NCBI GenBank assembly: GCA_016219325.1
Contig: JACRNH010000026.1
Span: forward strand, 3,098-67,097
Reading direction: 5' to 3'
From: Candidatus Collierbacteria bacterium
GTDB lineage: Bacteria > Patescibacteriota > Microgenomatia > UBA1400 > JACPES01
Length of the DNA stretch: 64,000 bases
Shown here: positions 2,496 through 38,573 of the stretch, piece after piece
Layout of the letters: the number at the start of each line of letters is the position of its first letter
How positions within the stretch are numbered: the stretch's first letter is position 1
Notes under the pieces: generated by a model
Seen by the model: only the letters and a program-made list of their open reading frames with translations
Databases searched by the model: none
What the model was told of the DNA's origin: nothing
Made by a program: the position numbers and the translations under genes

Positions 2496-2506
2496 GGCGA
2501 TACGAA

Positions 2507-8713: not shown

Positions 8714-9578
8714 TGCCTTTCAGTATACCAAATATCAACCACCGCGAGATCATTCCCAGTCCCAAAATAGCCTTAAGCAGAGGCATCTCCCAGCTTGGTT
8801 TATGAATTTTAAAAATGTGTTTTAATCCGTTAATCTCGCCCTGAATCCATTTTCCGCCTCCGGCTTTCCCCAAATGAACAATTGACGCCTTTGGGTTTAA
8901 CATTATATCCCAGCCCAATTTCCCGGCTCTCAAACACAATTCCACATCTTCTCCATACATAAATAGAGATTCATCAAAACCGTTTAACTTTTTCCACAGA
9001 ACATTTGAGACCCACATCGCCGTTCCGGCTACCCAGCCGGTTTTTTGCGGTCCACCGGAAAAAAAAGATTTCCGGCGCAATTGATAAGAAGGTAGAAATT
9101 GGCTAAAGACCGGTAAATCATCTAAGAACAGCGCCCAAAATGCCACCGTTGACAATTTTGGCAAATAACCACCTTGTTGTTGTATTGTTCCATCAGGATT
9201 AAGCAAATTACAACTGACAATCCCTACTTCTGGGTTATCTGATAAAAAGTTTTTCATTTCTTTAAAAGTCCCGGGGGTAACTTCCGTATCTGAATTTAAA
9301 AATAATAACCATTTGCCTGCGGCTTTCTTAGCGGCCAAATTATTTCCTTTAGCGAAGCCTAGATTAGTTTGGCTGTATAAATTCTGAATTCTGAATTCTG
9401 AATTCTGAATTCTGAAATGCTTTAGCATTTCAGCGCTCCCGTCCGTACTGGCGTTATCCAATACAATGATTTCGGCATTCAAAGAAGAGTTTTTCAAATC
9501 CTTGACAGCCGAACGTAAACAAGCCAACGTCAAGTCTTTAGTATTGTAAGAAAGGATAATAACGGATATATCTATCAT
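8601..9578 (-). CDS. GT2 family glycosyltransferase; contains in-frame (GAATTCA)5 tract
   Basis: ISVIILSYNTKDLTLACL...IVLDNASTDGS...GFAKGNN. Confidence 0.7.
   Translation of the reverse strand: MIDISVIILSYNTKDLTLACLRSAVKDLKNSSLNAEIIVLDNASTDGSAEMLKHFRIQNSEFRIQNLYSQTNLGFAKGNNLAAKKAAGKWLLFLNSDTEVTPGTFKEMKNFLSDNPEVGIVSCNLLNPDGTIQQQGGYLPKLSTVAFWALFLDDLPVFSQFLPSYQLRRKSFFSGGPQKTGWVAGTAMWVSNVLWKKLNGFDESLFMYGEDVELCLRAGKLGWDIMLNPKASIVHLGKAGGGKWIQGEINGLKHIFKIHKPSWEMPLLKAILGLGMISRWLIFGILKGNGEYKRNYFEAFKSALAILAGGIFIDIYSALPKDSLI
9380..9414. repeat. Heptanucleotide tandem repeat (AATTCTG)5 = (GAATTCA)n on gene sense strand, in-frame in GT2 gene (EFRIQNSEFRIQN)
   Basis: Read directly. Confidence 0.85.
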
Positions 9579-10174
9579 TGAAACAAACGATGGCGTCCAA
9601 GGCGGTAATGATAATCTTTTAGTTGTCTGTCGGCTATCTTTTTGGCCGGAACTCCTCCCGCAATTTCTCCTCCGGGAATATCCTTAGACACTACGGCTCC
9701 TGCTGCAATCACAACCCCGTCTCCGATATGAACTCCGGGTAAAATGACCGCCCTGGGGCCGATAAAAACATAATCACCTATCGCAACCGCCTGTTCAATT
9801 GCTCCGAAAAACTCATCATTAATGTTGTGTTCGCTATTATAAATTAAAACTTGGGAGGCAATGCTGGTATGACTGCCTATAGATAATTTTGCCCTGCCGT
9901 CAAGGAAACATCTATCACCGACAGATGTATCAACGCCGATTGAAATATTTTCCGGCTGATAGAACCTGCAACCCGTATGAATAGTAGAACCGTTGCCAAT
10001 CTTAACTCCCGCAAATCTATAAATATTATTTCTGATCGAGTGGAACGGAATCCAGCCGGAAAGCTCCAGTAAATAAATTTTAAAATCTAAAAAATAATTA
10101 TGAAATCTGATTATAATTTTCTTAGCGGCTTCTGAAATTGATAAGTCTTTACCGTATTTATCTTTCATATCCAA
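9575..10174 (-). CDS. Left-handed beta-helix (hexapeptide) O-acetyltransferase, WbbJ/LacA-like
   Basis: Repeated [LIV]G hexapeptide repeats IGDYVFIGPRAVILPGVHIGDGVVIAAGAVV. Confidence 0.7.
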   Translation of the reverse strand: MDMKDKYGKDLSISEAAKKIIIRFHNYFLDFKIYLLELSGWIPFHSIRNNIYRFAGVKIGNGSTIHTGCRFYQPENISIGVDTSVGDRCFLDGRAKLSIGSHTSIASQVLIYNSEHNINDEFFGAIEQAVAIGDYVFIGPRAVILPGVHIGDGVVIAAGAVVSKDIPGGEIAGGVPAKKIADRQLKDYHYRLGRHRLFQ

Positions 10175-10202
10175 ACTTCAATTATTTTCCTGCAAAGCAG
10201 GA

Positions 10203-11332
10203 TCAGGCTTCACCTGAAAATAATTTAAATAGTTTTATCATCTGGTTAGCCGCAATGTCCCAGCTAAATCGAACTGCTTTTATCATACCTTTTTTAATCA
10301 TACTTTGCCTTTGAATTTTATTCATAGACAAGACCTTCTCAATTTTTTGAGCCATATCTTTTATATTTATTGGATCAAACAAAATCCCGGCGTCACCCAC
10401 TACTTCAGGCATACTGGTAGTATTACTTGCCACAACCAAAGTTCCGACACTCATTGCTTCAACCGCCGGAATCCCAAACCCTTCATATAAACTTGGTAAA
10501 ACCAAAGCCTCCGCTCCGGCGTAAAGATCCGGCATATCTTCTTCCGGGACGTAACCCAGATATTTCACTTGTGAAGTTTGCGAAACTTCACCATTCAACA
10601 AAGGTTTCGCAAACTTCTCGTCAGCAAACTGCCGCCACGTTTTCCCCGCAATCATAAGACGGACATCCGGAAATCTATTTTTCACCTTTTCAAATGCTTT
10701 AATCAACCGTGGTAAATTCTTTTTCGGCTGCAGCGTCCCAACAAATAATAAATATTTTCCCGAAGTTCCTTCTTCCTTCTTCCTTCCTCCTTCTTCCTTA
10801 AATGCTTCGGAAACTCCCGGATATACTACTGTTATTTTCTCCGCCGGATAACCATACTCTTTCATTATTTCTCTCTTATTAAACTCGCTAATTGTGATAA
10901 CATGGTCCGCGCTTCTCACCGATTCTCTAGTCCAATTTACAAGCTGCCACAGCACAGCTGGTTTAAACGCTTCCGGGTATTTTAAAAACGATAAATCCAT
11001 GACGCAAACAACCCGCGGAACCGGAGACCATTTGGGAGCGTAATGTGACAGGGATAAAAACACATCCGGACGGGGCTTATGAAAATATAAATCCAGAGGC
11101 AATCTCCATCTAGTCCACAATCTCCCCGGCCCAATTACCCGATACTTCCAATACTCCGTCTCCTCCGGCAAATCAGCAACCGGTGGTCGCGACAAATAAA
11201 TCTGAAATTTTATTTCTTCCTTCTGCCCTATTCCTTTTTCCTTTTTCCTTTTGAACTGCTTTAGCAGTTCGAAGGCCCATACATTTACTCCTACCCTCTG
11301 TTTAATATTGGCTTCGTTTCCGTCAATTCCGA

Positions 11333-11339
<7 letters not shown>
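10203..11339 (-). CDS. GT4 family glycosyltransferase; two in-frame heptamer-repeat tracts
   Basis: EGFGIPAVEAMSVGTLVVASNTTSMPEV; low-complexity KEEGGRKKEEG and KRKKEKG segments encoded by TCTTCCT and TTCCTTT repeats. Confidence 0.7.
10766..10798. repeat. Imperfect heptanucleotide repeat (TCTTCCT)about4.7 in GT4 gene
   Basis: Read directly. Confidence 0.65.
11231..11251. repeat. Heptanucleotide repeat (TTCCTTT)3 in same GT4 gene
   Basis: Read directly. Confidence 0.65.
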
Positions 11340-12436
<1,097 letters not shown>

Positions 12437-12498
12437 AAATAATGAGCAATGAGTAGAAAGTAGAAAGTAATGAAACGATATTCATTACTCATTACTTC
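12437..12498. repeat. Intergenic inverted-repeat element family IG-A (AATGAGCAATGAGTAGAAAGTAGAAAGTAATGAA...TTCATTACTCATTACTTCTTACTCATTATTTTCT)
   Basis: Related copies at ~13273-13320 and ~30841-30930; stem AAGTAATGAA/TTCATTACTT. Confidence 0.7.
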
Positions 12499-13272
12499 TT
12501 ACTCATTATTTTCTATTTCCACAAAGAATATCTGTCTATAGAACGGCGGCCTTTCTAATAACATGAGCAATGGGATGAAAGGCAATAAAATCTTTCTAAA
12601 AAAAACATTTACCCAAAAATTAGAACTAATCCAACCGCGCATTAAAAACTTTCTGGTCAACATGTTTTCGTTGCCGGAAACAGTCAATTTAATCTTTCTA
12701 TCCAACCTTTTAGATGCCTTATCAATAAATGCAATTATATCAGTTTTGTCAGGCAAACCGTATTCAACCTGTTCTTTTAGAAACGTAAATTCTGTTTTAT
12801 GAGTTTTTAAATACTCATGACGCAACTCCTGGTCATGTCTTGAAGCTTCGGAACCGCAAGGAGCCCCGATAACAACGCCCGATTTTGACACTCTAATCAT
12901 CTCAAAGATAGACTTCTCCCTTACACCTGGCGATAAATGCTCTAGCATATCTGAACTAATTACCATGTCAAATGATTTGTCGGCAAAATCCAATTTTTCC
13001 GCTTTACCGACTACCCTGATTAAGTTTGGATGAAATGGAGGTTTGAATTCAACATCCACTCCTGTCACTGGCAATTTCAAATATGGAGTTATACCTAATC
13101 CCCCAGATCCGACTTCCAATATTGTAAGCTCCTTTTTTCCCTTAGCCCTTAGCCCTTGTCCTTTGACCTTTATCCACTCCACCATCGGCAAATATCTCAT
13201 TGCCAATTCCGGATGCCACCTGTACCACGGAGTGTGCTTTAATGCCAAAATTTCTTTTAACAAATTACTCAT
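12499..13272 (-). CDS. Class I SAM-dependent methyltransferase
   Basis: LEVGSGGLG glycine-rich motif I; DMVISSDMLEHL motif. Confidence 0.6.
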   Translation of the reverse strand: MSNLLKEILALKHTPWYRWHPELAMRYLPMVEWIKVKGQGLRAKGKKELTILEVGSGGLGITPYLKLPVTGVDVEFKPPFHPNLIRVVGKAEKLDFADKSFDMVISSDMLEHLSPGVREKSIFEMIRVSKSGVVIGAPCGSEASRHDQELRHEYLKTHKTEFTFLKEQVEYGLPDKTDIIAFIDKASKRLDRKIKLTVSGNENMLTRKFLMRGWISSNFWVNVFFRKILLPFIPLLMLLERPPFYRQIFFVEIENNE

Positions 13273-13320
13273 TACTCTTTACTCATTACTATTTACTCAT
13301 TATTTTCTACTCATTATCTT
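13273..13320. repeat. IG-A partial copy (TACTCATT heptamer-like repeats ...TACTCATTATTTTCTACTCATTATC)
   Basis: Read directly. Confidence 0.55.
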
Positions 13321-14734
13321 TCACCCAATGTTCAACCGTTACTCCCCGGAAATGCTGTTGATAGGTTCTGTTAAAATTCCGCGATTCCAGTAGCTGGCGG
13401 GTAGAGTCATCGGCATCAAAAATAGGTTGAGCGTATGGTATATACCAAAGAGATGGATAATAGATAATGGATGATGGATGAAGAGATGAGACATCAATTA
13501 CGCTTGATCTGCCCCGATTGTAATAATCAAACGGCGGTCTTACTGCCGGATGAATAACCACCATAGCTCCGGGTTCCCGCTTTTCTACATCAGCTACCGC
13601 CCCGGCCCAGTTTTCCCGGCGGTAAGTATCGCCGGAAACATAAACTGCCGAAGAGATCATCAACCCCAATACCATCGGTTCCAATAACCAACGCTGGCGG
13701 ATAGTCCCGGCGGCAGCCAAAATTAAAACCGGAGGCAAAATAAATAATAATCTGAAATAAGAAAAAACTGGAATAAAAATTCCGATTACCGCTCCTAGCC
13801 CCGTCGGCCAAATTATCCAACCCAATAAAATCATTAAAACCCGTTTAGACTCCTGTTTTTCAGACAACTCTTTAATTCCGCTAATTGCCAAAAACCAAAA
13901 AGCGGCACCAAGAATGACCGTCAATATAAGCAAACCTTCGGAATCCGGAAAAGGGATTCTGCCTGTCACAAATTTAATTGCTACCAACAATAAGTTTTTA
14001 ACCGATGTTTGGCTTAATTGCGCCCAAACAGGATTTCCGGCAGCAGACAGCCCTGATGCCAATTGCTTAAATAACATTGGGATCCATGGAATTACGGCCA
14101 CCAACGGCAAAATGTATTTTTTACCGGTGATAAGCAATAAGGGCAATAACAGCCAAACTAAATAATGGGAATATAATCCTACAGCGAAAAGCATTGTAAA
14201 TAAAATATAACTAATTCCTAATTTATTTTTCAGGGATTCATTTTTAATTAAAAAGTAAAAAGCGCAGGCAGTAAAAAAGGCTGCCATTGAGTACATCCTT
14301 GCTTCCTGGGAGTAATAAATCAGCAGGCCGGAAAAAGCAGCGAAAATAGCGCTGACATGCGAAGCTCTTAACGATAATCCGGAAACGCCTATAAAATCGT
14401 CTTTTTTACCTAAAATCAATTTGGAAATTTTATAAGTTAAATAAACAATTCCTATCCCAAATAAGACAGATGGGAAACGCAGCGAAATTTCCGAATCACC
14501 AAATACCTTAACCCAAAACCATAGTAATAAATGATGTGCCGGAGGATTGAAATCTCCGGCCATATAGCCAAATAACAATTGTTTTAAACTAAAAGATGTT
14601 ACCGCCCACCATTCTATCGCTTCATCTAACCACAATGATTGACTAAGTCCTACTAATCTTATCCAAAAACCAACTATCAATATTATTAACAGCCAAAACT
14701 TGTCAGATGGCGAAGATTTAAAAAATTTATGCAT
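13307..14734 (-). CDS. GT-C fold membrane glycosyltransferase (ArnT/PMT-like)
   Basis: Polytopic; LWLDEAIEWW in first loop (DE motif of GT39/83 family). Confidence 0.55.
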   Translation of the reverse strand: MHKFFKSSPSDKFWLLIILIVGFWIRLVGLSQSLWLDEAIEWWAVTSFSLKQLLFGYMAGDFNPPAHHLLLWFWVKVFGDSEISLRFPSVLFGIGIVYLTYKISKLILGKKDDFIGVSGLSLRASHVSAIFAAFSGLLIYYSQEARMYSMAAFFTACAFYFLIKNESLKNKLGISYILFTMLFAVGLYSHYLVWLLLPLLLITGKKYILPLVAVIPWIPMLFKQLASGLSAAGNPVWAQLSQTSVKNLLLVAIKFVTGRIPFPDSEGLLILTVILGAAFWFLAISGIKELSEKQESKRVLMILLGWIIWPTGLGAVIGIFIPVFSYFRLLFILPPVLILAAAGTIRQRWLLEPMVLGLMISSAVYVSGDTYRRENWAGAVADVEKREPGAMVVIHPAVRPPFDYYNRGRSSVIDVSSLHPSSIIYYPSLWYIPYAQPIFDADDSTRQLLESRNFNRTYQQHFRGVTVEHWVKDNE

Positions 14735-15615: not shown

Positions 15616-15683
15616 AACTTGACTCTTGACAGATACTATATATAATCACATCAATTAAAAGATTATCTCATAAAAATCCTATT

Positions 15684-16046
15684 ATGAATCCCGAACCAGA
15701 AATAAATAGTTTTGATTTGGCAAGAATAGTAATTGGCGATTCAATCCGCTCTGTTTATACTGACCCAAACTTATTAAAGGGGACAACTTTAGAAGATATT
15801 TTAGATCGACTTAATGACAAAGAGGGGGATTTAATGGTTCAAAGCGTTTTAGCAGGATATGCCGCTTCGGAACATGCAATGGTTGCTTCTGGTGAACCGA
15901 TAAATCTTGATAAACGTTTACTTGGGAAAAAATTGAATATTAGTGCTGTAAAACTTAAAGTCGAACTCAAAAAACAACTCTCTGAATTTTTAAGCCTCGA
16001 AGAAGAACCACGTCGAATTTTTCTTCAAGGACTGCTCTCTAAATAA
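15684..16046 (+). CDS. Hypothetical protein, 120 aa; only plus-strand gene inside a 20-kb minus-strand array
   Basis: ORF with ATG; no recognisable motif; acidic/charged; convergent 8-nt overlap with GT4 gene. Confidence 0.3.
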   Translation: MNPEPEINSFDLARIVIGDSIRSVYTDPNLLKGTTLEDILDRLNDKEGDLMVQSVLAGYAASEHAMVASGEPINLDKRLLGKKLNISAVKLKVELKKQLSEFLSLEEEPRRIFLQGLLSK

Positions 16047-17049
16047 TACCTTCAAACTCCTCTAAATATCTGACTGCAATCTTTTTCCAATCAAACTTTT
16101 TCGCCTGCTTTACTGGTTTATCCCTCCAATCAATCTTCGCCGCCGTTTCTAAACATCTCGCGTATTCCTCATTATCTTCCGGATTCTTAACAAAAACTCC
16201 AGAACTACCGATCATCTCTCTTCGCAAGGAATCGTCTGTCGCGACAACCGGAAGGTTACAGGCTATTGCCTCAAGATAAACCAATCCGAAAGCCTCATAA
16301 GATTCGGACGCCAAAGTAAACACATCCGCCGCCCGCAAATATTTCGCCACTTGATTGTGTGGTGTTACCAATCGCAAATACCTCTTGCTTTCACCGTCAT
16401 TGCGAGGAACAGGGCGACGCGGCAATCTCGTCAGATCGCCACGCTTCGCTCGCGATGACAAACCGTTCAACAACCGATTTCCTAATGCATCAATCTTTTT
16501 CTCCAGCGGACCCTCTCCTAGAATCAATAAGCTGCCTCTTTCCAGCTTCGCTACCGCCTTCACCACCTCCCCTACTCTTTTGTAGGAAACAAGATGAGAA
16601 ACTGTAATAAAAATCGGCCGCTCCAAATTAACGTCTGCCTGCTTGACATTCGGATTAAACTTTTCCAAATCAACTCCGTGGGGAATTTTGACAATTTTGA
16701 TGAACGGATTAACTTTTTTCGCCCATTCGTAACCTTTCTGCGAAAAAGCAATGAACAAATCCGGAAACATATATAAATTCCACCTGTCGTCCCGGCCGAT
16801 CCCGGCGTGTCCGCCCAAAACCAACTTAGTGCCTGTAAGCCATGAACAGAGACGGCAGCCGAATGCCTGCCAGTAACCGTTCAGCGGATAAATGATGTCC
16901 GGCCTCCGGCCAATTAACTGCCAGGCCGAAGTCAAAATCTCAATCTGATGTTTCCCACCCAGCCGTTGTCCTAACTCCTTTACATAATTCTCTACTCCTC
17001 TTTCAACTTTTCCCTGATAACGGCTGATAAAAACAATTTTCATTTTCAA
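16039..17049 (-). CDS. GT4 family glycosyltransferase; carries P3 in-frame element
   Basis: SESYEAFGLVYLEAIACNLPVVATDD C-terminal GT-B motif. Confidence 0.65.
   Translation of the reverse strand: MKMKIVFISRYQGKVERGVENYVKELGQRLGGKHQIEILTSAWQLIGRRPDIIYPLNGYWQAFGCRLCSWLTGTKLVLGGHAGIGRDDRWNLYMFPDLFIAFSQKGYEWAKKVNPFIKIVKIPHGVDLEKFNPNVKQADVNLERPIFITVSHLVSYKRVGEVVKAVAKLERGSLLILGEGPLEKKIDALGNRLLNGLSSRAKRGDLTRLPRRPVPRNDGESKRYLRLVTPHNQVAKYLRAADVFTLASESYEAFGLVYLEAIACNLPVVATDDSLRREMIGSSGVFVKNPEDNEEYARCLETAAKIDWRDKPVKQAKKFDWKKIAVRYLEEFEGII
16396..16428. repeat. P3 element GTCATTGCGAGG-N10-CGCGGCAATCT in GT4 gene (RLPRRPVPRND)
   Basis: Read directly. Confidence 0.75.
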
Positions 17050-17118
17050 TATTTATTTAAACAATTCATGTAGATTTAACATGCTATAGCAGAGTCAATC
17101 TACATAATTCATAATCAA

Positions 17119-26467: not shown

Positions 26468-27070
26468 TTAGTTAACCGTCGGAATAGCTACATGCGGCCG
26501 GCCCATTTGCTGCTGGAATAAAATATTTTGAAAATTCCCGTCCTTATCAATATCTTTGGCATACGCGAAATCATTTTGATAATCGCTCATATCAACATTA
26601 ACTATCACTAAATCCGGATTTAACGGCAAACCCTTATCTTTAATTATCCGATAATAAATAGCCGGGGCATAACTCATAACTCCCATGTTAACTGTCTCTA
26701 TTTTATGTCCGGTTTCCGCAGTCATTTCTTTCCCGGTTAAATACACAGCTATTTTAGCTTCCGCGACACTCTCCCCTTCTATAAATGAATCGCCAACCAC
26801 TAACACCCTAAAAACGCCTGCCGGCTTTAGCGCTTCCAAATCTTGCCCCCTAAATCCTAAGTTATTAACTTTGAATTCCACATCCCATTCCGGATATTTA
26901 GACCGGCAAACCGTATCCGGAACCAACTCGTGATGAAACTGCGGGCTCTGGCGGCGGCAAGCTCTGGTCTCAATATTCCGGTTACGGAAATTTTCCCAGC
27001 GGAAAAAAAATTCCGAAAATACTAAAAATATTAATCCCGACAAAAATGCCAAAAATACTTTTGACTTCAT
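26468..27070 (-). pseudogene. SGNH/GDSL hydrolase, N-terminal half (signal/TM anchor + GDS block I)
   Basis: VFRVLVVGDSFIEGESVAEA matches IYRILILGDSMTFGWGVEDG of the 38570..39880 paralog; ends at a stop and the downstream fragment is in another frame. Confidence 0.45.
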
Positions 27071-27073
27071 AAA

Positions 27074-29768: not shown

Positions 29769-29821
29769 TCGTAGGCTTAAACCCGCCAGCAGAATTATTA
29801 ATAGAGAAAATCTATATTTTG

Positions 29822-29932
29822 TCAGGATTGTTATCTTGTTATCTTGCTAACTTGATATATTGCTAAAGATAGTTAAAGTCGCAACTGATAAGACTTCAGG
29901 ATAACAAGATAACAAGCTAGCAAGCTAACAAT
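29822..29932. repeat. Intergenic hairpin element IG-B (TGTTATCTTGTTATC ... GATAACAAGATAACA, 15-bp perfect stem, about 60-nt loop, TTCAGGAT direct repeats)
   Basis: Related copy at ~36712-36780. Confidence 0.65.
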
Positions 29933-29936
29933 CAAA

Positions 29937-30308
29937 TTATGTTGAACTTTTGGCTATCATCAGTATTCCCACGATAATCACAACTAAGCCGCTCCATCTC
30001 AATAGCGGAATATCTTCATGCAAAACAAATTTAGACAGAAGAATCGTCACGATATAAGCGAAAGCCACCATCGGATAAGCAAAGGACAATTTTTCCCGGG
30101 ATAAAACTACCAGCCATAAGAAAACATTAACTCCAAAAAATGCCAAACCTCCGATAACATACCTATTAGAAAATGTTTTCAAAATGATATTAATTAAACC
30201 GTCGGAAAACTTTAGTTCCCCCACTTGGGTCATCCCGATTTTTAATATCATTTGGCCGATGGCCGCGGCTGTCACCGGAATTAATATTGAAATAATGCGA
30301 TTAAACAT
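29937..30308 (-). CDS. SMR/DMT-superfamily small membrane protein, ArnE/ArnF-like (EamA-like)
   Basis: 123 aa, 4 TM, within aminosugar-lipid module. Confidence 0.45.
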   Translation of the reverse strand: MFNRIISILIPVTAAAIGQMILKIGMTQVGELKFSDGLINIILKTFSNRYVIGGLAFFGVNVFLWLVVLSREKLSFAYPMVAFAYIVTILLSKFVLHEDIPLLRWSGLVVIIVGILMIAKSST

Positions 30309-30840: not shown

Positions 30841-30930
30841 TTATGTAATGAGCAATGAACAGAAAACAGAAAACAATGAAAATCATTATTCATTGCTTTC
30901 TACTCATTATTTTCTGCTCATTGTTTTCTG
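30841..30930. repeat. IG-A element copy (TAATGAGCAATGAACAGAAAACAGAAAACAATGAAAA...TCATTGCTTTCTACTCATTATTTTCTGCTCATTGTTTTCTG)
   Basis: Read directly; supplies the last 8 codons and stop of gene 30907..32508. Confidence 0.7.
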
Positions 30931-32508
30931 ACTAAACAATTCTACTCCAAATCTCCATAAAAACCATCCGCTGCTGATTATCCCTAAACTAATTATCCCC
31001 GGTAAAAAGGGAGTTTTGAAAAACCATGGCTTATATTGGCTGGCCCGCAGGAAAAAAGTTTGAAAATTAGTTATGCTGCCAAAATATGATTCTGACACAA
31101 ACCATAAGGAGAACCAGTTAAAAACTGTCATTAAAACGACCAGAGATAAACCAATAGCTCTACGGAAACGAACCGGAGACAAAACCAACAGTCCAACCAA
31201 TAAAATGGCCATATGCTCTGTTAAATTAGGGAAAAAATATCTTCCCTGAATTCCGAACGAAAAACCCTTGCTTCTCCAGAACAATAAATTCCAAGCGTAA
31301 ATACCCAATGTATAAATCAAGCTGCTGCCGATTAGCCAAGCAAACGGCTTTAAATTGGCGACAATTTTTATTTTCTTAAAACCGGTTATCAATCCGATTA
31401 AAAAAAGTCCCGTGATAATTTTTATAACCCGATAAACCCAAAGGGGCAATGTCAAAGACAGCCAGCGGTAAACCCCCCAATACCACGGTAATACTTGGCG
31501 GTAAAAATCAACTGCCGATATTTTAATATAGTCGATTAAAAATGGTTGAGAATTCAAACCAATAGTGTCTTCAACTTCGGGAATGAACATATTGGCCAGT
31601 AACGGCTGCGGAATAATATTCCTAAGAGCCGTCCTGTTTATTATTCCGATGAAAATAACCGCGGCTATCGCCAACAGAACTACGGCTGATATTAATTTCG
31701 GAACAAGTTTGTTCTTCCGGCCGGTAATTACTTTCAGCCAGAGAAATAATGAAATTATTATCAAAAAAACTCCTTGAGTTTTCGTCAACAAAAGAGCAGC
31801 CAAAGCCAAAATCAGGGCTATCAGGTTTTTCCAGGTCGGGCGAAGATCGGCTTTTAACAAAAAAAGCATCGACAGGGGATAAATAAAATTCATCAAAGAG
31901 TCGCTGGTAACGCCGCTGCCTGTAAACATCCGCATCGGCTGAAACACCGCCATAGCGGCTAAAACGTAAGCATAGAAAATCTGTTTAAATAATATTTTCC
32001 CGATATTAAAGACCACAACCCCTAATCCTACGGACAATAAAACCGTCGCCGCTCTGGACAAAAACACTCTGGAAACCAAATCAAGGCTCCAGAATTGCTT
32101 GTTTATGGCTGATATATATAAATAGTATAAAGGCGGATAACCTGTAGCTTCATTAATTGAAAGAATGCTTCTTGATTCTGCCGGCATCGCAATCATTTCT
32201 TTTTCGTACAGTCCGTAAACAGAATTGGCGTACTCAATATTATATTCAGGATGATATGTAAACTTATTATTTCCCCGCTCATCTCTAAAAACTCCCAGAT
32301 ATTTTTCCGATAAAACAATATCAGCTGATGTTGAATACCCTGATTGAGGACGGTTTCTCAACGCCGCAAAATCCTGGGCTTGGGCAAAATGAGCCTGCTC
32401 ATCAGGGGTTTGCCAAAGGGGAATCATTGCTGCCCAGCTGATTCCGGCGAAAAAAACCGCGGTTGAAAAAATTATTAAAAGTTTGGAGGCTTTCTGTTGA
32501 AATTCCAT
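30907..32508 (-). CDS. GT-C fold membrane glycosyltransferase (ArnT/DUF2142-like)
   Basis: PLWQTPDEQAHF loop motif; polytopic. Confidence 0.5.
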   Translation of the reverse strand: MEFQQKASKLLIIFSTAVFFAGISWAAMIPLWQTPDEQAHFAQAQDFAALRNRPQSGYSTSADIVLSEKYLGVFRDERGNNKFTYHPEYNIEYANSVYGLYEKEMIAMPAESRSILSINEATGYPPLYYLYISAINKQFWSLDLVSRVFLSRAATVLLSVGLGVVVFNIGKILFKQIFYAYVLAAMAVFQPMRMFTGSGVTSDSLMNFIYPLSMLFLLKADLRPTWKNLIALILALAALLLTKTQGVFLIIISLFLWLKVITGRKNKLVPKLISAVVLLAIAAVIFIGIINRTALRNIIPQPLLANMFIPEVEDTIGLNSQPFLIDYIKISAVDFYRQVLPWYWGVYRWLSLTLPLWVYRVIKIITGLFLIGLITGFKKIKIVANLKPFAWLIGSSLIYTLGIYAWNLLFWRSKGFSFGIQGRYFFPNLTEHMAILLVGLLVLSPVRFRRAIGLSLVVLMTVFNWFSLWFVSESYFGSITNFQTFFLRASQYKPWFFKTPFLPGIISLGIISSGWFLWRFGVELFSQKTMSRK

Positions 32509-33197
32509 AATTCCTTAAGATAAATTAACGTATCCGGGATAAGTTTAACCGTCGAGGTTTTGTCGTAACGCCTGATAAAAACTACCGGAATTTCAGTAAT
32601 TCTCAATTTAGCCCTTGAGGCTTTGACCATTATTTCGGTATCCCAAAACCATCCCGGACTGTAACACTTTCTAACAACAGGCAATATTTTATCCCTATCA
32701 AAGAACTTATATCCCGCTTCGGTATCTTTAAAAATTTCACCTAAAACTAAATTCCGAACACTGCCATACCCCTTGCTGGCAAACCACCTCGGCAGGCTTT
32801 TTAAAGTAAAATCGTAAATTCTCCATCCGGATGCAACATCAAATCCAGAATTTATTTCCGAAATAAACCTTGGAATATATTCCGGCGGAATTTCGCAATC
32901 GATATCAATATATCCGACTACTTTCCCCTGCGACTTTTCTATTCCTTCAGAAACAGACCTGCCCCGTCCCGAATTTTTATCATGAAAATACACAGACAAA
33001 TGTTTCCTGGGATTTTTTTTAATATATGATCTAATCAAGTTAGAAGTCCTATCAGTTGAGGCGTCTTCAATAAAAATAATCTCCCAGCTGAAACTACTGC
33101 CATCAAGAACATTAATTATTCTGTTCACGCTTTGATTAAAATGCTCGCTTTCGTTAAAACAAGGCAAAACCAAGCTAAAATCAAATTGATAAGCCAT
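32475..33197 (-). CDS. GT2 polyprenyl-phosphate sugar transferase (ArnC/DPM1/GtrB-like)
   Basis: FSLVLPCFNESEH...IFIEDASTD...GRGRS; size and motifs of Und-P glycosyltransferases. Confidence 0.6.
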   Translation of the reverse strand: MAYQFDFSLVLPCFNESEHFNQSVNRIINVLDGSSFSWEIIFIEDASTDRTSNLIRSYIKKNPRKHLSVYFHDKNSGRGRSVSEGIEKSQGKVVGYIDIDCEIPPEYIPRFISEINSGFDVASGWRIYDFTLKSLPRWFASKGYGSVRNLVLGEIFKDTEAGYKFFDRDKILPVVRKCYSPGWFWDTEIMVKASRAKLRITEIPVVFIRRYDKTSTVKLIPDTLIYLKELWNFNRKPPNF

Positions 33198-33221
33198 AAA
33201 GTGATATTATCATAGCAATAT

Positions 33222-33300
33222 CATTGGGACATGGGAACATTGGAACATGGGAACAAATGCTCTAATGCTCAAATGTTCAAATGTTCAAATGCTCTCATGA
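33222..33300. promoter_or_regulatory. 5' leader repeat element IG-C (CATTGGGACATGGGAACATTGGAACATGGGAACAAATGCTCTAATGCTCAAATGTTCAAATGTTCAAATGCTC) directly upstream of aminotransferase start
   Basis: Second copy upstream of RmlD-like gene at ~47372-47435, same orientation relative to downstream gene. Confidence 0.5.
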
Positions 33301-34502
33301 ATTCAATCAATCTTCCCGCTATTGAAGGAGGAAAACCGGTCAGGAAAGATTTTTTGGTTTTTGGCCGGCCAATGATTCTTAAAGAAGAAATTGATGAAGT
33401 TCTGGAGACCTTACGTTCCGGCTGGTGGGGAACCGGACCCAAAACCAAATTCTTCGAAAAAGAATTCGCCAAATATGCCCATGCCAAATACGCATTAGCG
33501 TTGTCTTCATGCACGGCAGCCACAGAACTGGCTCTTGATATTTTGGAAATTGGCACCGGCGACGAAGTCATTACAACTCCTCTGACATTCGTTTCTACTG
33601 CCAATGTAGTCCTCCACCGTGGCGCAACAGTCAAATTTGCCGATGTTGATCCAAACACCTGGAATATTGATCCAAAATTTATCGGAAAAACCATTACCAA
33701 AAAAACAAAAGCCGTAATTCCTGTCCACCTTCATGGACGGCCGGCAGATATGGATGCGATTACTAAAATTGCCAAGGATCACAAACTCTATGTTATTGAA
33801 GACGCTGCCCACGCGGCCGAAGCCTGGTATCACGGAAAAAAAATTGGCAGTATCAGCGACTTTACCGCCTTTTCTTTTTACGCCACCAAAAATGTGGCTA
33901 CCGGCGAAGGCGGAATGTTGACGACCAACAATAAACAATGGTTTGAAACCGCCGCGATCCGGGCTCTTCACGGCCTATCCGCCGACGCCTGGAACCGATA
34001 CTCTGCTTATGGATTTAAACCTTATGAAGCCGTTTATCCCGGATACAAAATAAATATGACCGATATCCAGGCGTCTTTAGGCTTACCTCAACTAAGGTCA
34101 ATTGAAAAAAGCTCTAAAGTCAGAACAAGAATCTGGCAGGAATATCAAAAAGCTTTTTCTAAAATAGAAAGTTTGATAATTCCGGCCACTGACGAAGCAA
34201 ACACTGTTCATGCCCGCCATTTATACGCTTTGGTATTAAAACCAGAAATGTTTAAAGTTGACAGAAACAGATTTGTCGCCGCTCTTCAGGAAGAAGGCAT
34301 TGGTTGCGGAGTTCATTTCATTCCGGTTCATCTGCACGAATATTACAGAAAAACTTTCGGATATAAGCTTGGTGATTTTCCGGAATCGGAAAAAATCGGA
34401 CTGAATATTTTCTCCTTACCTATTTATCCTACAATGAATAAAAATGACGTTAGTGACGTCATCAATGCAATCCAAAAATTGGTAGACTATTACAGAAAAT
34501 GA
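33231..34502 (+). CDS. DegT/DnrJ/EryC1/StrS PLP-dependent sugar aminotransferase (ArnB/PglE-like); true start probably MNSINLPAIEGG (~33298)
   Basis: IEGGKPV, LALSSCTAATELAL, FSFYATKNVATGEGG (PLP-lysine region). Confidence 0.75.
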   Translation: MGTLEHGNKCSNAQMFKCSNALMNSINLPAIEGGKPVRKDFLVFGRPMILKEEIDEVLETLRSGWWGTGPKTKFFEKEFAKYAHAKYALALSSCTAATELALDILEIGTGDEVITTPLTFVSTANVVLHRGATVKFADVDPNTWNIDPKFIGKTITKKTKAVIPVHLHGRPADMDAITKIAKDHKLYVIEDAAHAAEAWYHGKKIGSISDFTAFSFYATKNVATGEGGMLTTNNKQWFETAAIRALHGLSADAWNRYSAYGFKPYEAVYPGYKINMTDIQASLGLPQLRSIEKSSKVRTRIWQEYQKAFSKIESLIIPATDEANTVHARHLYALVLKPEMFKVDRNRFVAALQEEGIGCGVHFIPVHLHEYYRKTFGYKLGDFPESEKIGLNIFSLPIYPTMNKNDVSDVINAIQKLVDYYRK

Positions 34503-35470
34503 AAACTTATCTTATTACCGGAGGAAGCGGCTTTATCGGGAGTTTCATTTGCGAAAAATTGTTAGCTGAAAATAACCACATTATTTGTGTTGATAATTTC
34601 ATTACCGGCCAACGTAAAAATATTGAACATTTATTATCAAATCCCAATTTCACCCTGATCGAAGCCGATGTTTCAAAACCGGATTGGATTGAATCAACGC
34701 TCAACGTTCAACGCACAACGCTCAATTTCATCCTCCACCTCGCCTCCCCTGCCGGCCCCAACCCTAAAAGCCCCAAAAGTTATCATGCTCTCCCTGTAGA
34801 AACTTATTTGGTTAACTCTATCGGGACTCATTACCTTTTGGAACTTGCCAAAAAACACAATGCTGTTTTTCTGTTTGCCTCAACCAGCGAAGTTTATGGC
34901 GACCCCGAGGTCCATCCCCAACCGGAAACCTACTGGGGACATGTAAATCCCATCGGCCCCAGAGCAATTTACGACGAAAGCAAACGCTTTGGCGAAGCGA
35001 TTTGCGCCGCCTGGAGCCGCAAATTTGGCCTCCAAACCCGAATCGCCAGAATTTTTAATACCTATGGCCCAAGAATGAATCCTGATGACGGCAGAGCTAT
35101 CCCGCTTTTTATCCAATCATCCATCAACCATCAACCATTAACCATTCATGGTGACGGACATCAAACCCGCAGTTTCTGCTACGTTGATGACCAAGTTGAA
35201 GGACTGCTAAAACTTCTGCGCTCCGATCTAAATGCCGATCCGGTCAACATCGGCAACCCCGTCGAACTGACAATTAAAGAACTTGCGGACACAATTATCC
35301 GGCTAACAGGCTCAAAATCCACAGTTCAATATAATAAACTGCCGGAAGACGACCCCGAACGCCGCCGTCCGGATATTTCAAAAGCAAAAAAGCTTCTCGA
35401 CTGGGAACCGAAGGTTGGACTGGAAGAAGGACTGAAAAAAACTATTGAATATTTCCGAGGAGCTAATTAG
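34499..35470 (+). CDS. UDP-glucuronate decarboxylase (UXS/ArnA-decarboxylase-like SDR); carries an in-frame heptamer-repeat insertion
   Basis: ITGGSGFIGS, YDESKR, RIFNTYGPRMNPDDGRAIPLFIQ (UXS signature). Confidence 0.7.
   Translation: MKTYLITGGSGFIGSFICEKLLAENNHIICVDNFITGQRKNIEHLLSNPNFTLIEADVSKPDWIESTLNVQRTTLNFILHLASPAGPNPKSPKSYHALPVETYLVNSIGTHYLLELAKKHNAVFLFASTSEVYGDPEVHPQPETYWGHVNPIGPRAIYDESKRFGEAICAAWSRKFGLQTRIARIFNTYGPRMNPDDGRAIPLFIQSSINHQPLTIHGDGHQTRSFCYVDDQVEGLLKLLRSDLNADPVNIGNPVELTIKELADTIIRLTGSKSTVQYNKLPEDDPERRRPDISKAKKLLDWEPKVGLEEGLKKTIEYFRGAN
34694..34724. repeat. Heptanucleotide repeat (TCAACGY)4 in-frame in UXS gene
   Basis: Read directly. Confidence 0.7.
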
Positions 35471-35540
35471 TCGTTTATTACAGAGAATTATTCAATTTCT
35501 GTTACTAACAACTAACAACTAATTACTAATAACTATTTTA

Positions 35541-36479
35541 TTGACTGGCTGCGCCGGATTTATCGGATCTAACCTACTTGATCGTCTCCTCGCTGATGGT
35601 TATCGTGTCATCGGCGTTGACGACTTTAATGATTATTATTCTCCGATTCAAAAACGCTCCAATATCGCTCGCCACCTAAACGATAACAATTTTACCCTGA
35701 TTAAATCAGATATCAGTAGATTGCCACGTCGCTACGCTCCTCGCAATGACGAAACAATTAACATCGTCATTCACTTAGCAGCGAGGGCAGGAGTACGAGC
35801 GTCTATTAAAGAGCCGCTTTTATATCAGAAAGTCAACGTCGGCGGAACATTAAAAATGCTGGAGTTGGCGAAAGAATTAAAAGTTAAGCATTTTATTTTT
35901 GGCTCAAGTTCCAGCGTTTACGGAAACAATACTCCTGTCCCGTTTCGCGAAGACGCTGCTTGCGATCAGCCGATTTCTCCCTATGCCGCTACCAAAAGAT
36001 CGGGCGAATTATTATGTTTTGCTTATTCTCATTTATATAAAATTCCCACAACTGTTTTAAGATTCTTTACCGTATATGGTCCGCGGAACCGCCCGGATAT
36101 GGCAGCATTTAAATTCATGGACTCTATTGCAAATGAAAAACCGGTTGACTTCTACGGTCAAGACACCAGCCGGGATTATACATATGTTGATGACATTGTT
36201 AACGGCATTCTGGCTGCTATCAATTTCATTCCCGATAATTTTGATATTTTTAATTTAGGAAATTCTTCGCCAACAAAATTATCTGAATTTATAAATACAA
36301 TTGAAGAAGTTGTTGGTAAAAAAGCTATTTTGGTTAAAAAAGAACTTCCTCAAGGCGACGTTCAAACAACTTTTGCAGACATTTCAAAAGCGGAAAAAAT
36401 TCTGAAATGGAAACCAAAGGTTAATCTTAAAACCGGAATCGAAGAACTTTGGAAATGGTATAAAATGGCAGATAGATAG
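35541..36479 (+). CDS. NAD-dependent sugar epimerase/dehydratase (GalE/WbpP family); carries P3 in-frame element
   Basis: TGCAGFIGSNL Rossmann motif, YAATK catalytic YxxxK. Confidence 0.7.
   Translation: MTGCAGFIGSNLLDRLLADGYRVIGVDDFNDYYSPIQKRSNIARHLNDNNFTLIKSDISRLPRRYAPRNDETINIVIHLAARAGVRASIKEPLLYQKVNVGGTLKMLELAKELKVKHFIFGSSSSVYGNNTPVPFREDAACDQPISPYAATKRSGELLCFAYSHLYKIPTTVLRFFTVYGPRNRPDMAAFKFMDSIANEKPVDFYGQDTSRDYTYVDDIVNGILAAINFIPDNFDIFNLGNSSPTKLSEFINTIEEVVGKKAILVKKELPQGDVQTTFADISKAEKILKWKPKVNLKTGIEELWKWYKMADR
35718..35750. repeat. P3 element (opposite DNA strand, same sense orientation) AGATTGCCACG-N10-CCTCGCAATGAC in epimerase gene (RLPRRYAPRND)
   Basis: Read directly. Confidence 0.75.
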
Positions 36480-36485
36480 GTTATA

Positions 36486-36707
36486 ATGCAATCTATGAAT
36501 TTGATTTGGCAACCTATCAAAACTCTTCTGATAAAAATTGGCCGGATTCAGACAATGATAATAATGTCTTTATTTTATTATCTTATCTTAGGCCCGATGG
36601 CAATTCTATATCGAATATTTAACCGCCAAAAACCATCAGGACAAACTTATTGGATAAAAAAAGAACCGATTAAAGATATGGATTTATATCTAACTAGACA
36701 ATTTTAA
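36486..36707 (+). CDS. SxtJ-like small membrane protein (C-terminal YW...RQF motif), possibly N-terminally short
   Basis: Ends ...YWIKKEPIKDMDLYLTRQF, matching remembered SxtJ family C-terminus; genomic association with carbamoyltransferase. Confidence 0.35.
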   Translation: MQSMNLIWQPIKTLLIKIGRIQTMIIMSLFYYLILGPMAILYRIFNRQKPSGQTYWIKKEPIKDMDLYLTRQF

Positions 36708-36711
36708 AAGC

Positions 36712-36780
36712 TAGCTATCTTGCTAGCTTGCTATCTTGCTAAACTGGAAAACAAGATAACAAGATAACAAGATAACAAAA
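36712..36780. repeat. IG-B related element (GCTAGCTATCTTGCTAGCTTGCTATCTTGCTA...AACAAGATAACAAGATAACAAGATAACAA)
   Basis: Read directly. Confidence 0.6.
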
Positions 36781-36785
36781 TAAAT

Positions 36786-38573
36786 TTGTATATTCTCGGC
36801 CTTTCTTGCTTCTACCACGACTCTGCCGCCGCTTTAATCAAAGACGGTAAGGTCATCGCCGCTGCTCACGAAGAAAGATTTACCAGAATAAGACATGATG
36901 AAAATTTCCCGGAGGAAGCTGTTGAATTTTGTTTAAATTTCGCTAAGATTGCTCCGAAAGATCTAACCGCTGTCGCTTTTTACGATAAACCCTTTTTAAA
37001 ATTTGAGAGATTGCTGACCACCTATTTTGAGACCTGGCCCAAAGGCGTATTTTCCTGGGCTAAAGCCATGCCGGTCTGGCTGTCTAAAAAACTCTGGATT
37101 AAATCCCTGATTCAGGAAAAGTTGGATGGGTACTCCGGAAAAATTTATTTCCCCGAACATCATTTATCTCATGCCGCCAGCGCATTTCTGGTTTCTCCTT
37201 TTGAAAAAGCTGCGATTCTAACTATCGATGGTGTCGGTGAATGGGCTACGGCCACTAAGAGTATTGGAGACGGAACCAATATCACTCTGACACATCAAAT
37301 TGATTTTCCCCATTCTTTGGGACTTCTGTATTCCGCATTCACTTATTACACCGGATTTAAAGTGAATTCCGCCGAATACAAAGTTATGGGATTGGCGCCT
37401 TACGGAAAACCCATATACGCCAAACTAATATTGGACAACTTAATTGATGTTAAGCCGGACGGCAGTTTTAAAATGAATATGAAATATTTTGCCTATCCTT
37501 ACGGTTTAACCATGACAAACAATTTATTCTGCCAATTATTCAATCATCAACCTGCTCAAAAAGGCCAGAAACCGGCTGAATTTGAAATGGATATCGCTGC
37601 TTCAATTCAGGCAGTCACCGATGAAATTATGCTGCGCCTCACCCGGTCTTTATATCAGGAGACGAAATTAACAAATCTTTGCATGGCAGGAGGCGTTGCC
37701 TTAAACTGCGTTTCAAACGGGAAAATATTAAAGGATGGGAAATTTAAGAGTTTATTCATCCAACCGGCAGCTGGAGACGCCGGCGGAGCATTGGGGGCGG
37801 CGGAGGCCGTATACTACGGCCTAAATTCAGAATTCAGAATTCAGAATTCAGAATTTAAACGTTGGGCTTTCGGCTCCGCTCTGCTCGGTCCGGAATATTC
37901 CGACACCGAAATAAAGATATTGCTTGATAAAAATAAACTAAAATATAAAAAACTCTCTCAAAAACAATTGACAAAAACAACCGCAAGCCTGATCAGTGAT
38001 CAAAAGGTAGTCGGCTGGTTTCAGGGACGAATGGAATGGGGGCCAAGGGCTTTAGGAGCCAGATCTATTTTAGCTGACGCCAGAAATCCGGAAAATCAAA
38101 AACGGGTAAATCTGGCGATTAAATTCCGGGAAAGCTTCAGGCCGTTTGCTCCGGTGGTGATGGAAGATAAAATGGGAAATTGGTTTGACGCTACCTGGAC
38201 AGATCCCTATATGATCACGGTTTGCCAAGTAAAAAACGGTAATAAAGTTCTAACCACCCGAGATAACAGCCAAATACCGGCGGTAACGCATCTTGACGGT
38301 TCGGCAAGAATTCAAACTGTGAACCGGAAACAAAATCCCCTTTACTACGATGTCATCCATGAATTTTATAAAAAAACCGGCGTTCCGGTACTTATCAACA
38401 CCAGCTTTAACCGCCGCGGCGAACCGATTGTCTGCGCCCCCCAAAACGCCCTTGATTGTTTCTTAGGCACCAACATCGACAATCTTGCCATCGGCTCATT
38501 TTTACTTGACAAAAAAAACATGCCTGAAAACTTAATTAACACTGCCAAAGCCCAAATATTCGCCCCTGATTAG
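36786..38573 (+). CDS. Carbamoyltransferase, NodU/CmcH family; contains in-frame (GAATTCA)4-5 tract
   Basis: YILGLSCFYHDSAAALIKDGKVIAAAHEERFTRIRHD N-terminus (Kae1/HypF-like), about 595 aa. Confidence 0.8.
   Translation: MYILGLSCFYHDSAAALIKDGKVIAAAHEERFTRIRHDENFPEEAVEFCLNFAKIAPKDLTAVAFYDKPFLKFERLLTTYFETWPKGVFSWAKAMPVWLSKKLWIKSLIQEKLDGYSGKIYFPEHHLSHAASAFLVSPFEKAAILTIDGVGEWATATKSIGDGTNITLTHQIDFPHSLGLLYSAFTYYTGFKVNSAEYKVMGLAPYGKPIYAKLILDNLIDVKPDGSFKMNMKYFAYPYGLTMTNNLFCQLFNHQPAQKGQKPAEFEMDIAASIQAVTDEIMLRLTRSLYQETKLTNLCMAGGVALNCVSNGKILKDGKFKSLFIQPAAGDAGGALGAAEAVYYGLNSEFRIQNSEFKRWAFGSALLGPEYSDTEIKILLDKNKLKYKKLSQKQLTKTTASLISDQKVVGWFQGRMEWGPRALGARSILADARNPENQKRVNLAIKFRESFRPFAPVVMEDKMGNWFDATWTDPYMITVCQVKNGNKVLTTRDNSQIPAVTHLDGSARIQTVNRKQNPLYYDVIHEFYKKTGVPVLINTSFNRRGEPIVCAPQNALDCFLGTNIDNLAIGSFLLDKKNMPENLINTAKAQIFAPD
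37824..37856. repeat. Heptanucleotide tandem repeat (AATTCAG)4.7 = same (GAATTCA)n, in-frame in carbamoyltransferase gene (SEFRIQNSEF)
   Basis: Read directly; reverse complement of the 9380 tract; same orientation relative to host gene. Confidence 0.85.

Follow-up and report, generated by a model that had tools for sequence, protein, structure and literature searches.

This study concerns two tandem arrays of the heptanucleotide GAATTCA that lie in frame in two genes of a 64-kb stretch of DNA from Candidatus Collierbacteria bacterium, an uncultured groundwater organism; this stretch is referred to below as the window. As judged by Pfam annotation of its open reading frames (ORFs), the window is one surface-glycan locus throughout. 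It encodes GT2 and GT4 glycosyltransferases, Wzy, a flippase, PMT_2 and ABC-2 export functions and NeuB-type nonulosonic-acid pathway genes, together with methyl-, acetyl- and carbamoyl-transferases; no transposase is present among the annotated ORFs of the window, and no Rfam family matched anywhere in it. One of the two genes (8601..9578, minus strand) encodes a GT2-family glycosyltransferase of 325 amino acids (aa) (PF00535, E 1.1e-22) and the other (36786..38573, plus strand) an O-carbamoyltransferase of the NodU/TobZ/GdmN type of 595 aa (PF02543 and PF16861), homologous to the solved O-carbamoyltransferases NovN, GdmN and TobZ (PDB 9s2t, 7vyj and 3ven). Both ORFs are intact. Each protein has a 100% match among proteins assigned to Ca. 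Collierbacteria (P0139 for the GT2, P0001 for the carbamoyltransferase), which are encoded on a 107-kb contig.

Tandem arrays were called with Tandem Repeats Finder (TRF), and perfect runs of at least 2.5 copies were counted separately. The GT2 tract is a perfect period-7 (GAATTCA)n array of 37 nt and 5.3 copies at positions 9380-9416 on the minus strand and encodes FRIQNSEFRIQN(L), aa 55-67; that of the carbamoyltransferase, also perfect, spans 32 nt and 4.6 copies at 37824-37855 on the plus strand and encodes NSEFRIQNSEF, aa 347-357. The original prediction, that the two genes carry this tract in frame and are surface-glycan genes, is thus confirmed by TRF, by the intact ORFs and by Pfam. 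Its statement that both genes encode SEFRIQNSEF is correct for the carbamoyltransferase but not for the GT2: the tract regions read HFRIQNSEFRIQNLY in the GT2 and LNSEFRIQNSEFKRW in the carbamoyltransferase, and the stretch common to the two is FRIQNSEF. Both tracts finish with the same degenerate unit, GAATTTA, in the same 3' phase. The window contains five copies of the 14-mer GAATTCAGAATTCA, each within one of the two tracts (9385-9412 on the minus strand and 37830-37850 on the plus strand); in 100 dinucleotide-preserving shuffles of the window it does not occur.

Two features that had made the pair look special are less telling than they seemed. The tracts do have the same orientation relative to their genes, but this is uninformative: (GAATTCA)n is free of stop codons in all three frames, each of which yields EFRIQNS, and its reverse complement (TGAATTC)n contains TGA. 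As any array of at least three copies within an ORF is read in all three frames, only one orientation and one cyclic peptide are possible. Likewise, the EcoRI site noted in each unit is real, and GAATTC is found elsewhere in the window at its expected frequency (30 sites observed against 29 expected); avoidance of EcoRI-type restriction was considered and rejected on that count. Both tracts fold as single-strand hairpins through their palindromic core (z -4.0 and -5.0). Hairpin formation was nevertheless rejected as the common denominator of the arrays described below, since (GGAGTCA)n and several others do not fold.

We then located the tracts in their proteins. In an AlphaFold2 model of the GT2 (mean predicted local distance difference test score, pLDDT, 86.5), the tract residues are predicted to form the end of helix 48-58, the loop 59-62 and the strand 63-69, with pLDDT of about 92, which places the site at the helix-2/strand-3 junction of the GT2 fold. 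In the carbamoyltransferase, the tract falls in the interdomain linker between the Kae1-like and YrdC-like domains (Pfam domains 3-339 and 400-576). At both sites the tract-bearing proteins are longer than distant homologues. The segment of the GT2 from F to NxGF measures 16 aa in 11 homologues with 56%-84% identity to the window protein and 9 aa in P0156, a more distant homologue without the insert (alignment A2), a difference of 7 aa, which equals 21 nt and so three units. In alignment A1, the linker of the carbamoyltransferase exceeds that of P0036, a homologue of 578 aa, by 7 residues. Four of the arrays within ORFs come after a helix ending in ...(A/H/Q)F, which in the GT4 and GT2 folds we take to be the junction with a variable loop. 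Arrays that follow fold junctions or extend linkers would thus persist where about seven additional residues are tolerated. The original prediction that gain or loss of one unit shifts the frame is correct: in simulations, adding or removing one or two units shortens the GT2 to 66-77 aa and the carbamoyltransferase to 352-380 aa, whereas adding or removing three units leaves both in frame.

The two tracts are not a distinctive pair, as they had first appeared, but two of the 20 period-7 arrays that TRF detects in the window, the 18 others being built of many different units. Twelve arrays are in frame in ORFs and eight lie in short spacers. When only perfect runs of at least 2.5 copies are counted, period 7 accounts for 12 and each other period from 5 to 16 for 0-3. 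The in-frame arrays are distributed over nine genes, namely three GT4 genes, the GT2 gene, two PMT_2 genes, a methyltransferase gene, an epimerase gene (with two arrays) and the carbamoyltransferase gene. The eight spacer arrays lie in the 4.2% of the window that is outside ORFs, a density about 15 times that within ORFs (binomial p 8e-7).

To place these numbers, we compared the window with a lineage sample of syntenic Collierbacteria-like loci (L001, L081-L086 and L088-L094; 207 kb, all of them glycan loci) and with controls consisting of 78 loci from other phyla, outside the candidate phyla radiation (CPR), that contain the same carbamoyltransferase family (1.18 Mb). TRF detects 74 period-7 arrays in the Collierbacteria-like loci, or 35.7 per 100 kb, against 5.8 per 100 kb in the controls, where period 7 is not the leading period. 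Of perfect period-7 arrays with at least 2.5 copies, the 64-kb window has 12, another Collierbacteria genome has 5 in 21.8 kb and the controls have 7 in 1.18 Mb, so that the density in the window is about 30 times higher. Copy number in the 74 arrays has a median of 4.3 and a maximum of 8.4, and 36 of them have 4.x copies. The 58 arrays tallied by unit reduce to 36 canonical units, the unit ATCAACC being found in seven arrays. No period-7 array was found in the single Chisholmbacteria locus of the set (L002). Four of the seven perfect control arrays, e.g. (TTCGTCC)5.3 and (CAGGGGT)4.4, are carried by one Latescibacterota locus (L011, 3374-10663), which probably represents another heptamer-rich lineage.

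What becomes of such arrays over time can be followed at orthologous sites. Both tract segments are hypervariable in sequence yet filled in all relatives (alignments A1 and A2). At the GT2 site, the window has (TTCAGAA)5.3, L088, whose protein is 55% identical, (TTCAGAA)4.3-4.6, L089-92 (TTCGCAA)4.6-4.9 (ranges by eye and by TRF), and L094 (CTCGAAA)4-4.4. At the carbamoyltransferase site, (AATTCAG)4.6 in the window corresponds to (AATTCGA)4.7 in L093, (ATCAACC)4.4 in L081, a 14-nt repeat in L082 and, in L001, L083 and L085, perfect palindromes about 34 nt long. A third hotspot is the perfect (GGAGTCA)4.6 array at 11736..11767 on the minus strand, in frame in the GT4 gene 11333..12436, where it encodes SGVRSQESGVR, aa 224-234; the orthologues have (CATCAAC)4.0 and (TCAACGC)4.4 at this site. 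The same is seen in the epimerase/dehydratase gene 34499..35470, whose (TCAACGC)4.6 array (34694..34725, plus strand, aa 66-76) is matched in five orthologues by GCCCTTA (in two), ATCATTC, the 8-mer CATCAACG and a degenerate array (L086), giving five units over six genomes with nearly constant segment length. In the L085 epimerase orthologue (555-1505), this in-frame period-8 array, (CATCAACG)4.5, encodes HQRINASTHQRI. In the methyltransferase gene 12499..13272, the site aa 39-45 has (AAGGGCT)2.7 in the window (13139..13157, minus strand), a perfect (AAGGACG)4.6 in L089 and a degenerate palindrome in L094.

At the orthologous sites, identity between positions i and i+7 within an array is 1.00 in every genome, against 0.57-0.71 for the same columns compared between genomes, while copy number is near constant at 4.0-5.3. 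Homogeneity within genomes, divergence between genomes and a fixed position together indicate concerted evolution of inherited arrays, and arrays in which homogenisation so far outpaces divergence by point mutation are genuinely unstable sequences. The comparison of orthologues therefore supports instability, in that the same sites hold arrays of changing unit, but it shows a near-constant copy number and no array out of frame. Independent insertions into a permissive loop were considered as an alternative and are disfavoured against inheritance with homogenisation by the constant segment length and by the occupation of the site in all orthologues. Together, the sequence comparisons indicate that the in-frame heptamer arrays are old, frame-preserving (+7 aa) simple sequence repeats (SSRs) that evolve concertedly.

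The palindromes that occupy some of these hotspots deserve a separate description. They are perfect 34-nt sequences of the form AAGG...CCTT, e.g. AAGGCCTGGCCTTGCCGCGGCAAGGCCAGGCCTT, lie in frame and vary in sequence from genome to genome; they were found in the carbamoyltransferase linker of L085 (within 2799-4547), in L001 (10001-11779), in L083 (1236-3035) and in the GT4 gene of L089 (2469-3638).

Arrays of GAATTCA itself are not confined to this lineage. When metagenome contigs were scanned for exact matches to (TTCAGAA)3.3, at least 120 contained it. Among the matches listed, GC content ranges from 0.31 to 0.69, array lengths peak at 25-27 and 32-33 nt, and the contigs are heptamer-rich overall, with 233 other period-7 arrays in 685 kb. 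The arrays listed include in-frame instances in LepA, arginyl-tRNA synthetase (ArgRS), a histidine kinase, GH97, an acyl-CoA synthetase and a Chloroflexota gene of the xanthine dehydrogenase family, and the peptide is identical in every in-ORF instance listed. Among viral contigs, GAATTCA arrays are present in 9, those of a control unit of the same composition in 5 and those of ATCAACC in 17; in view of these similar counts, the idea that GAATTCA is a globally favoured or special unit was rejected. Short heptamer arrays of any unit are widespread.

In our view, both tracts are probably heptanucleotide SSRs of a class found throughout the lineage, which are tolerated in frame where indels are permitted, are kept homogeneous by slippage and give rise to null alleles only as a by-product. 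They would be ordinary members of a population of short SSRs, typically of 4-5 copies and about 30 nt, that pervades Collierbacteria-type genomes. Homogenisation would proceed by replication slippage or by out-of-register template switching; only net lengths that keep the frame would survive, and arrays elsewhere in ORFs would be purged, a loss that may account for the roughly 15-fold higher density in spacers. Because one-unit slips truncate the proteins, the tracts would be expected to yield null GT2 and carbamoyltransferase alleles occasionally. At 4-5 copies, such alleles probably arise at a low rate, as a side effect of a mutational habit of the whole genome and not as the output of a tuned switch. 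The unit shared by the two genes would be best explained by related ancestral units, to which occasional exchange between arrays may contribute.

The original prediction had instead proposed that the two tracts are contingency loci, and a reading of this kind would make dedicated, selected slipped-strand switches of the GT2, the carbamoyltransferase and the seven other array-bearing glycan genes, generating surface diversity against phages or hosts. The architecture is right in part: a 7-nt unit is not divisible by 3, both proteins are truncated when one or two units are gained or lost, the hosts are surface-glycan enzymes, nine genes have in-frame arrays within a 38-kb glycan locus, and the perfection of arrays homogenised faster than point mutation argues that slippage is active. 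There is also a precedent in neuO, the capsule O-acetyltransferase gene of the CUS-3 prophage in E. coli K1, where (AAGACTC)n forms a heptanucleotide switch. As in the window, a 7-nt unit lies in the coding sequence of a surface-glycan-modifying enzyme, encodes a 7-residue periodic peptide and gives a full-length protein only when the frame is kept (in neuO, when the repeat number is divisible by 3). In neuO, however, 3-53 repeats (mode 20) lie at the 5' end, 42 of 64 genomes (66%) are out of frame (OFF), and cultures contain a few percent of variants that are one unit longer or shorter. The window tracts have only 4-5 copies and are accompanied by many other arrays, and no period-7 array in the 207 kb exceeds 8.4 copies; in the carbamoyltransferase the tract lies in mid-gene (aa 347 of 595), away from the 5' end, and in the GT2 it lies at aa 55 of 325. 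A section heading of Lin and Kussell (2011) describes a steep climb of SSR indel variability with SSR length. Full-length sequences of the GT2 (about 30) and of the carbamoyltransferase (about 30), with at least 73% identity and with members of 90% clusters included, contain no OFF allele at the tract; this set includes no near-identical strains of the window's species. Short cluster members were examined as candidate OFF alleles and rejected: they are fragments at contig ends, genes split elsewhere, or products of L087, an error-ridden long-read contig with the majority of its genes fragmented, and none is broken at the tract.

Differences in unit number do occur in arrays of this class. The related contigs L209 and L220 are one GAATTCA unit apart at one locus (4 and 3 copies), with one of 25 bases different in the upstream flank and an identical downstream flank, which speaks for the switch reading. 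L089 and L091, which are 97.6% identical and come from different samples, differ in a GT4 gene (L089 2469-3638) by in-frame deletions of one and of two 9-nt units (9 and 18 nt), and repeat number is therefore polymorphic between strains of this lineage. Copy number at orthologous sites is nevertheless almost constant, spacers are rich in arrays of equal size, and (GAATTCA)n is in frame in the essential LepA and ArgRS genes of other bacteria, where an ON/OFF switch makes no sense. We therefore regard dedicated switches as unlikely. The architecture permits phase variation, and switching at a low rate is a possibility to which we likewise attach little weight. An artefact of assembly or sequencing, such as concatemers of linkers or adapters with EcoRI sites, might be suspected from the presence of GAATTC, a common cloning site, in every unit; yet the tracts are in frame in intact conserved ORFs, orthologous arrays appear in independent NCBI, JGI, ENA and Logan assemblies, and the structural model gives the encoded segment a regular secondary structure at pLDDT of about 92. 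An artefact is thus extremely improbable.

Sharing of one tract by two genes had also been taken to suggest copy-paste or a mobile microsatellite. On this view, the tract would have been copied from gene to gene, or a mobile (GAATTCA)n cassette would have seeded both, whether through template switching at ectopic sites, conversion between arrays or a non-autonomous small element. Some non-independence is indeed plausible: from the heptamer composition of the window and stop-free classes, only 0.077 same-unit pairs are expected among the 12 in-ORF arrays, and the two tracts agree in unit, in 3' phase and in the terminal GAATTTA, which suggests that they are not independent. Recurrence of one unit within a genome is common, as in L094 (two GAATTCA-type arrays 7.6 kb apart) and L081 (three ATCAACC-type arrays within 4 kb), and four of the nine viral contigs with (GAATTCA)n hold at least two arrays. 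The AT-rich array has sharp AATT...AATT boundaries in GC-rich contigs, with 66 of the 124 listed arrays ending in CAGAATT and 76 starting with (G)AATTCA; ATCAACC arrays have no preferred boundary. In the GT2 gene, the arrays of the window and of L088 share 28 identical nt despite a flank identity of 53%, and other small elements insert at or into arrays. Against this, comparison of the orthologues examined revealed no similarity of the flanks over more than a few bases, no duplication of a target site and no orthologous site that was empty: each site examined is filled, by an array or by a palindrome, at a constant position, as vertical inheritance would have it. Homologous recombination usually needs a length that 30-nt arrays at best just reach, and GAATTCA is no commoner in viral contigs than control heptamers. 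Furthermore, the carbamoyltransferase unit in the sister genome L093, AATTCGA, differs by two bases, and every unit at the GT2 site conforms to YTCNNAA, the pattern to be expected where a homogenised unit is constrained by conserved F/L and I codons at the array ends; in view of this near-match and of this codon constraint, the exact coincidence of unit is not very improbable. Exchange between arrays is possible, and copying or mobility as the origin of the shared tract seems doubtful to us. A bolder proposal, which we rate as improbable, would unite the heptamer arrays and the 34-nt palindromes in one lineage-specific template-switching process, a 'self-templating rewrite' that overwrites segments of about 30 nt in the loops of glycan enzymes and in spacers and exchanges units, and that would act as a mobile or convertible microsatellite diversifier or switchboard of the CPR cell surface.

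Several observations weigh against tolerated, slippage-homogenised SSRs as the explanation that we favour. Homogenising a 7-nt array within an ORF needs out-of-frame intermediates, 21-nt steps or length-neutral conversion, and if the out-of-frame route were dominant, OFF alleles would arise regularly and the genes would behave as contingency loci. A glycan-locus window with nine array-bearing genes resembles the multi-SSR glycan loci of Campylobacter and Haemophilus, and the assemblies are consensus sequences, which hide minority length variants. The identity of the window and L088 arrays between diverged flanks, like the agreement of the two window tracts in unit, phase and end, hints at exchange or convergence beyond vertical descent. 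Lastly, all 20 arrays of the window lie within 1-38 kb and none within 38-64 kb (binomial p 3e-5), although glycan genes are present in both parts, and a uniform genome-wide mutational habit does not predict so uneven a split. The distal 38-64 kb might be a more recent acquisition, as is perhaps suggested by the fall of GC content to 0.35-0.37 at 58-62 kb.

The remaining arrays of the window are as follows. The GT4 gene 10203..11339 has two in-frame arrays, both on the minus strand: (AAGGAAG)4.9 at 10766..10799 (aa 181-192), where orthologues have 34-nt palindromes, and an (AAAAGGA)/(GAAGGAA) array at 11214..11252 in its N-terminal part (aa 30-42), where L094 has (AAGGGCT)4.9. Also in frame on the minus strand are (AACTCAA)4.1 at 3500..3528 in the GT4 gene 2555..3655 (aa 43-52), (GTCAATT)3.1 at 6452..6473 in the gene of a PMT_2 membrane glycosyltransferase (5662..7137) and a degenerate (ATCCATC)4.3 at 13452..13481 in the PMT_2 gene 13307..14734, which corresponds to (CCTTATC)3.4 in L094. 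The short (AGTTATG)2.1 at 26668..26682 (minus strand; ORF 26468..27070) is the weakest member and could be due to chance. On the plus strand, the second array of the epimerase gene 34499..35470, a degenerate (ATCAACC)4.3 at 35116..35145 encoding SSINHQPLTI, is conserved in orthologues and thus appears to be an old, decaying array. Spacer arrays comprise a perfect (AATGGTT)4.6 with (ATCACTA)3.3 between two co-directional GT4 genes (2505..2566); the inverted pair (AGTAGAA)2.6 and (TCATTAC)3.9 at 12452..12508, which folds as a hairpin (z -5.7); (ATTACTC)n of period 7/14 at 13264..13321, of a unit family shared with 12482-12508; (AACAGAA)2.6 with an inverted period-14 TCATTGTTTTCTGC array at 30858..30930, also a hairpin (z -5.0); and (ACTAACA)4.6 between two epimerase genes (35504..35535).

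Spacer hairpins whose arms are inverted tandem arrays of period 7 or 8 were seen at 12438-12512, 29820-29940, 30844-30934, 33215-33300 and 36700-36790. Examples of their arms are (TTGTTATC)4.4...(GATAACAA)4 and, immediately 5' of the carbamoyltransferase start, (AGCTTGCT)4...(AACAAGAT)4.2. Folded as single-stranded DNA they have z of -4.1 to -5.7, and none matches an Rfam family. The spacer 5' of the carbamoyltransferase in L081 and L001 also contains inverted period-7 arrays, of other sequence. Two kinds of small element were observed in addition. GC-rich double-hairpin elements of about 40 nt lie inside heptamer arrays at 42781-42820 of the window (ABC_tran gene 42673..43455), at 16215-16285 of L094 and at the N-terminus of the L089 GT4. 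The window element interrupts a (CATCAAC)n array whose counterpart in L085 (8986-9016) is unbroken, and the homologous element of L094 and L089, between two half arrays, reads TGCCC.CAGA.GCTACGC...GTTGCAGGC.GGC. The GT4 gene 16039..17049 contains a 75-nt in-frame insert, GLSSRAKRGDLTRLPRRPVPRNDGE, at 16390-16464 that is not in the L094 orthologue; the insert includes an inverted repeat and resembles a repetitive extragenic palindromic (REP)-like element translated in frame.

Outside the arrays, the glycan locus contains an ORF for an AbiEii-type nucleotidyltransferase toxin (PF08843, E 1e-24) at 50397-51269 on the minus strand, followed by an unannotated ORF of 224 aa (51242-51916, minus strand); the two may form a type IV toxin-antitoxin pair. 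All 2-kb bins of the window have a negative GC skew (about -0.01 to -0.29), whatever the gene orientation, in agreement with the continuous strand asymmetry published for Collierbacteria genomes (PMC7143001).

Heptamer units had been thought unusual, which the literature on long bacterial SSRs contradicts. According to the summaries of Mrazek et al. (2007) in PMC4679880 and PMC4692102, heptanucleotides dominate the long SSRs (LSSRs) of prokaryotes and a 7-nt slippage step of the polymerase has been proposed; LSSR units not divisible by three are reported to be rarer in genes. The arrays described here share with LSSRs the over-representation of period 7, the many loci and units and the occurrence in scattered lineages. 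They differ in that LSSRs are known from large, often GC-rich genomes (Burkholderia, Xanthomonas, cyanobacteria, actinobacteria), whereas the host here is a CPR bacterium with a small genome, and in that 12 of 20 arrays lie in frame in genes at conserved hotspots. Like the GGGNATC repeats that Rehm et al. (2015) describe in Xanthomonas and Nostoc and the short tandemly repeated repetitive (STRR) heptamers of cyanobacteria, they are enriched between co-directional ORFs and their units recur at many loci, but the former belong to one G-rich unit family and ours are diverse and mostly not G-rich. Rehm et al. (2015), who remarked on the absence of detailed literature on heptameric repeats, ascribed the preference for about four copies in Xanthomonas and Nostoc to G-quadruplexes. 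The same preference (median 4.3) for units that are not G-rich indicates that this explanation is not general, and it probably reflects general mutational dynamics of heptamer arrays. The TAACTGA repeats of marine Beggiatoaceae, cyanobacteria and Bacteroidetes (MacGregor 2015) are likewise heptamers of 2-6 copies in scattered bacteria, with orientation set by stop codons and no evident mechanism of transfer, but they consist of a single unit, are nearly all intergenic just 5' of start codons and have been assigned a proposed role in translational regulation.

Other comparisons are with surface-glycan and in-frame repeats. Phasome tracts of Campylobacter, Haemophilus and Neisseria are homopolymers or have units of 2-5 nt, are long enough for switching at high rate and vary in repeat number between and within strains. 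Their likeness to the window lies in the several SSR-bearing genes of one surface-glycan locus. As for repeats within coding sequence, Rickettsia palindromic elements measure 100-150 nt, have a conserved family sequence and lie in frame, at surface-exposed positions, in conserved genes that include housekeeping genes. As with those elements, short repeats are tolerated in frame here, and relatives carry 34-nt palindromes at identical hotspots, but the tracts themselves are 30-nt tandem arrays without a family consensus. We found no report in the literature of heptamer-rich CPR genomes or of (GAATTCA)n arrays.

If both tracts are indeed ordinary, tolerated SSRs, the value of the finding would be chiefly cautionary and descriptive: a striking pattern in two genes would be explained by a genome-wide habit and a stop-codon constraint, and Collierbacteria would be added to the heptamer-rich lineages Nostoc, Xanthomonas, Burkholderia and Beggiatoaceae. 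Perfect in-frame arrays kept at a fixed protein site across up to 45% protein divergence offer a clean natural case of concerted evolution in coding sequence. And should some of the nine glycan genes with arrays switch, even a minority, the locus would count as the first candidate phasome from an episymbiotic lineage that is uncultivated.

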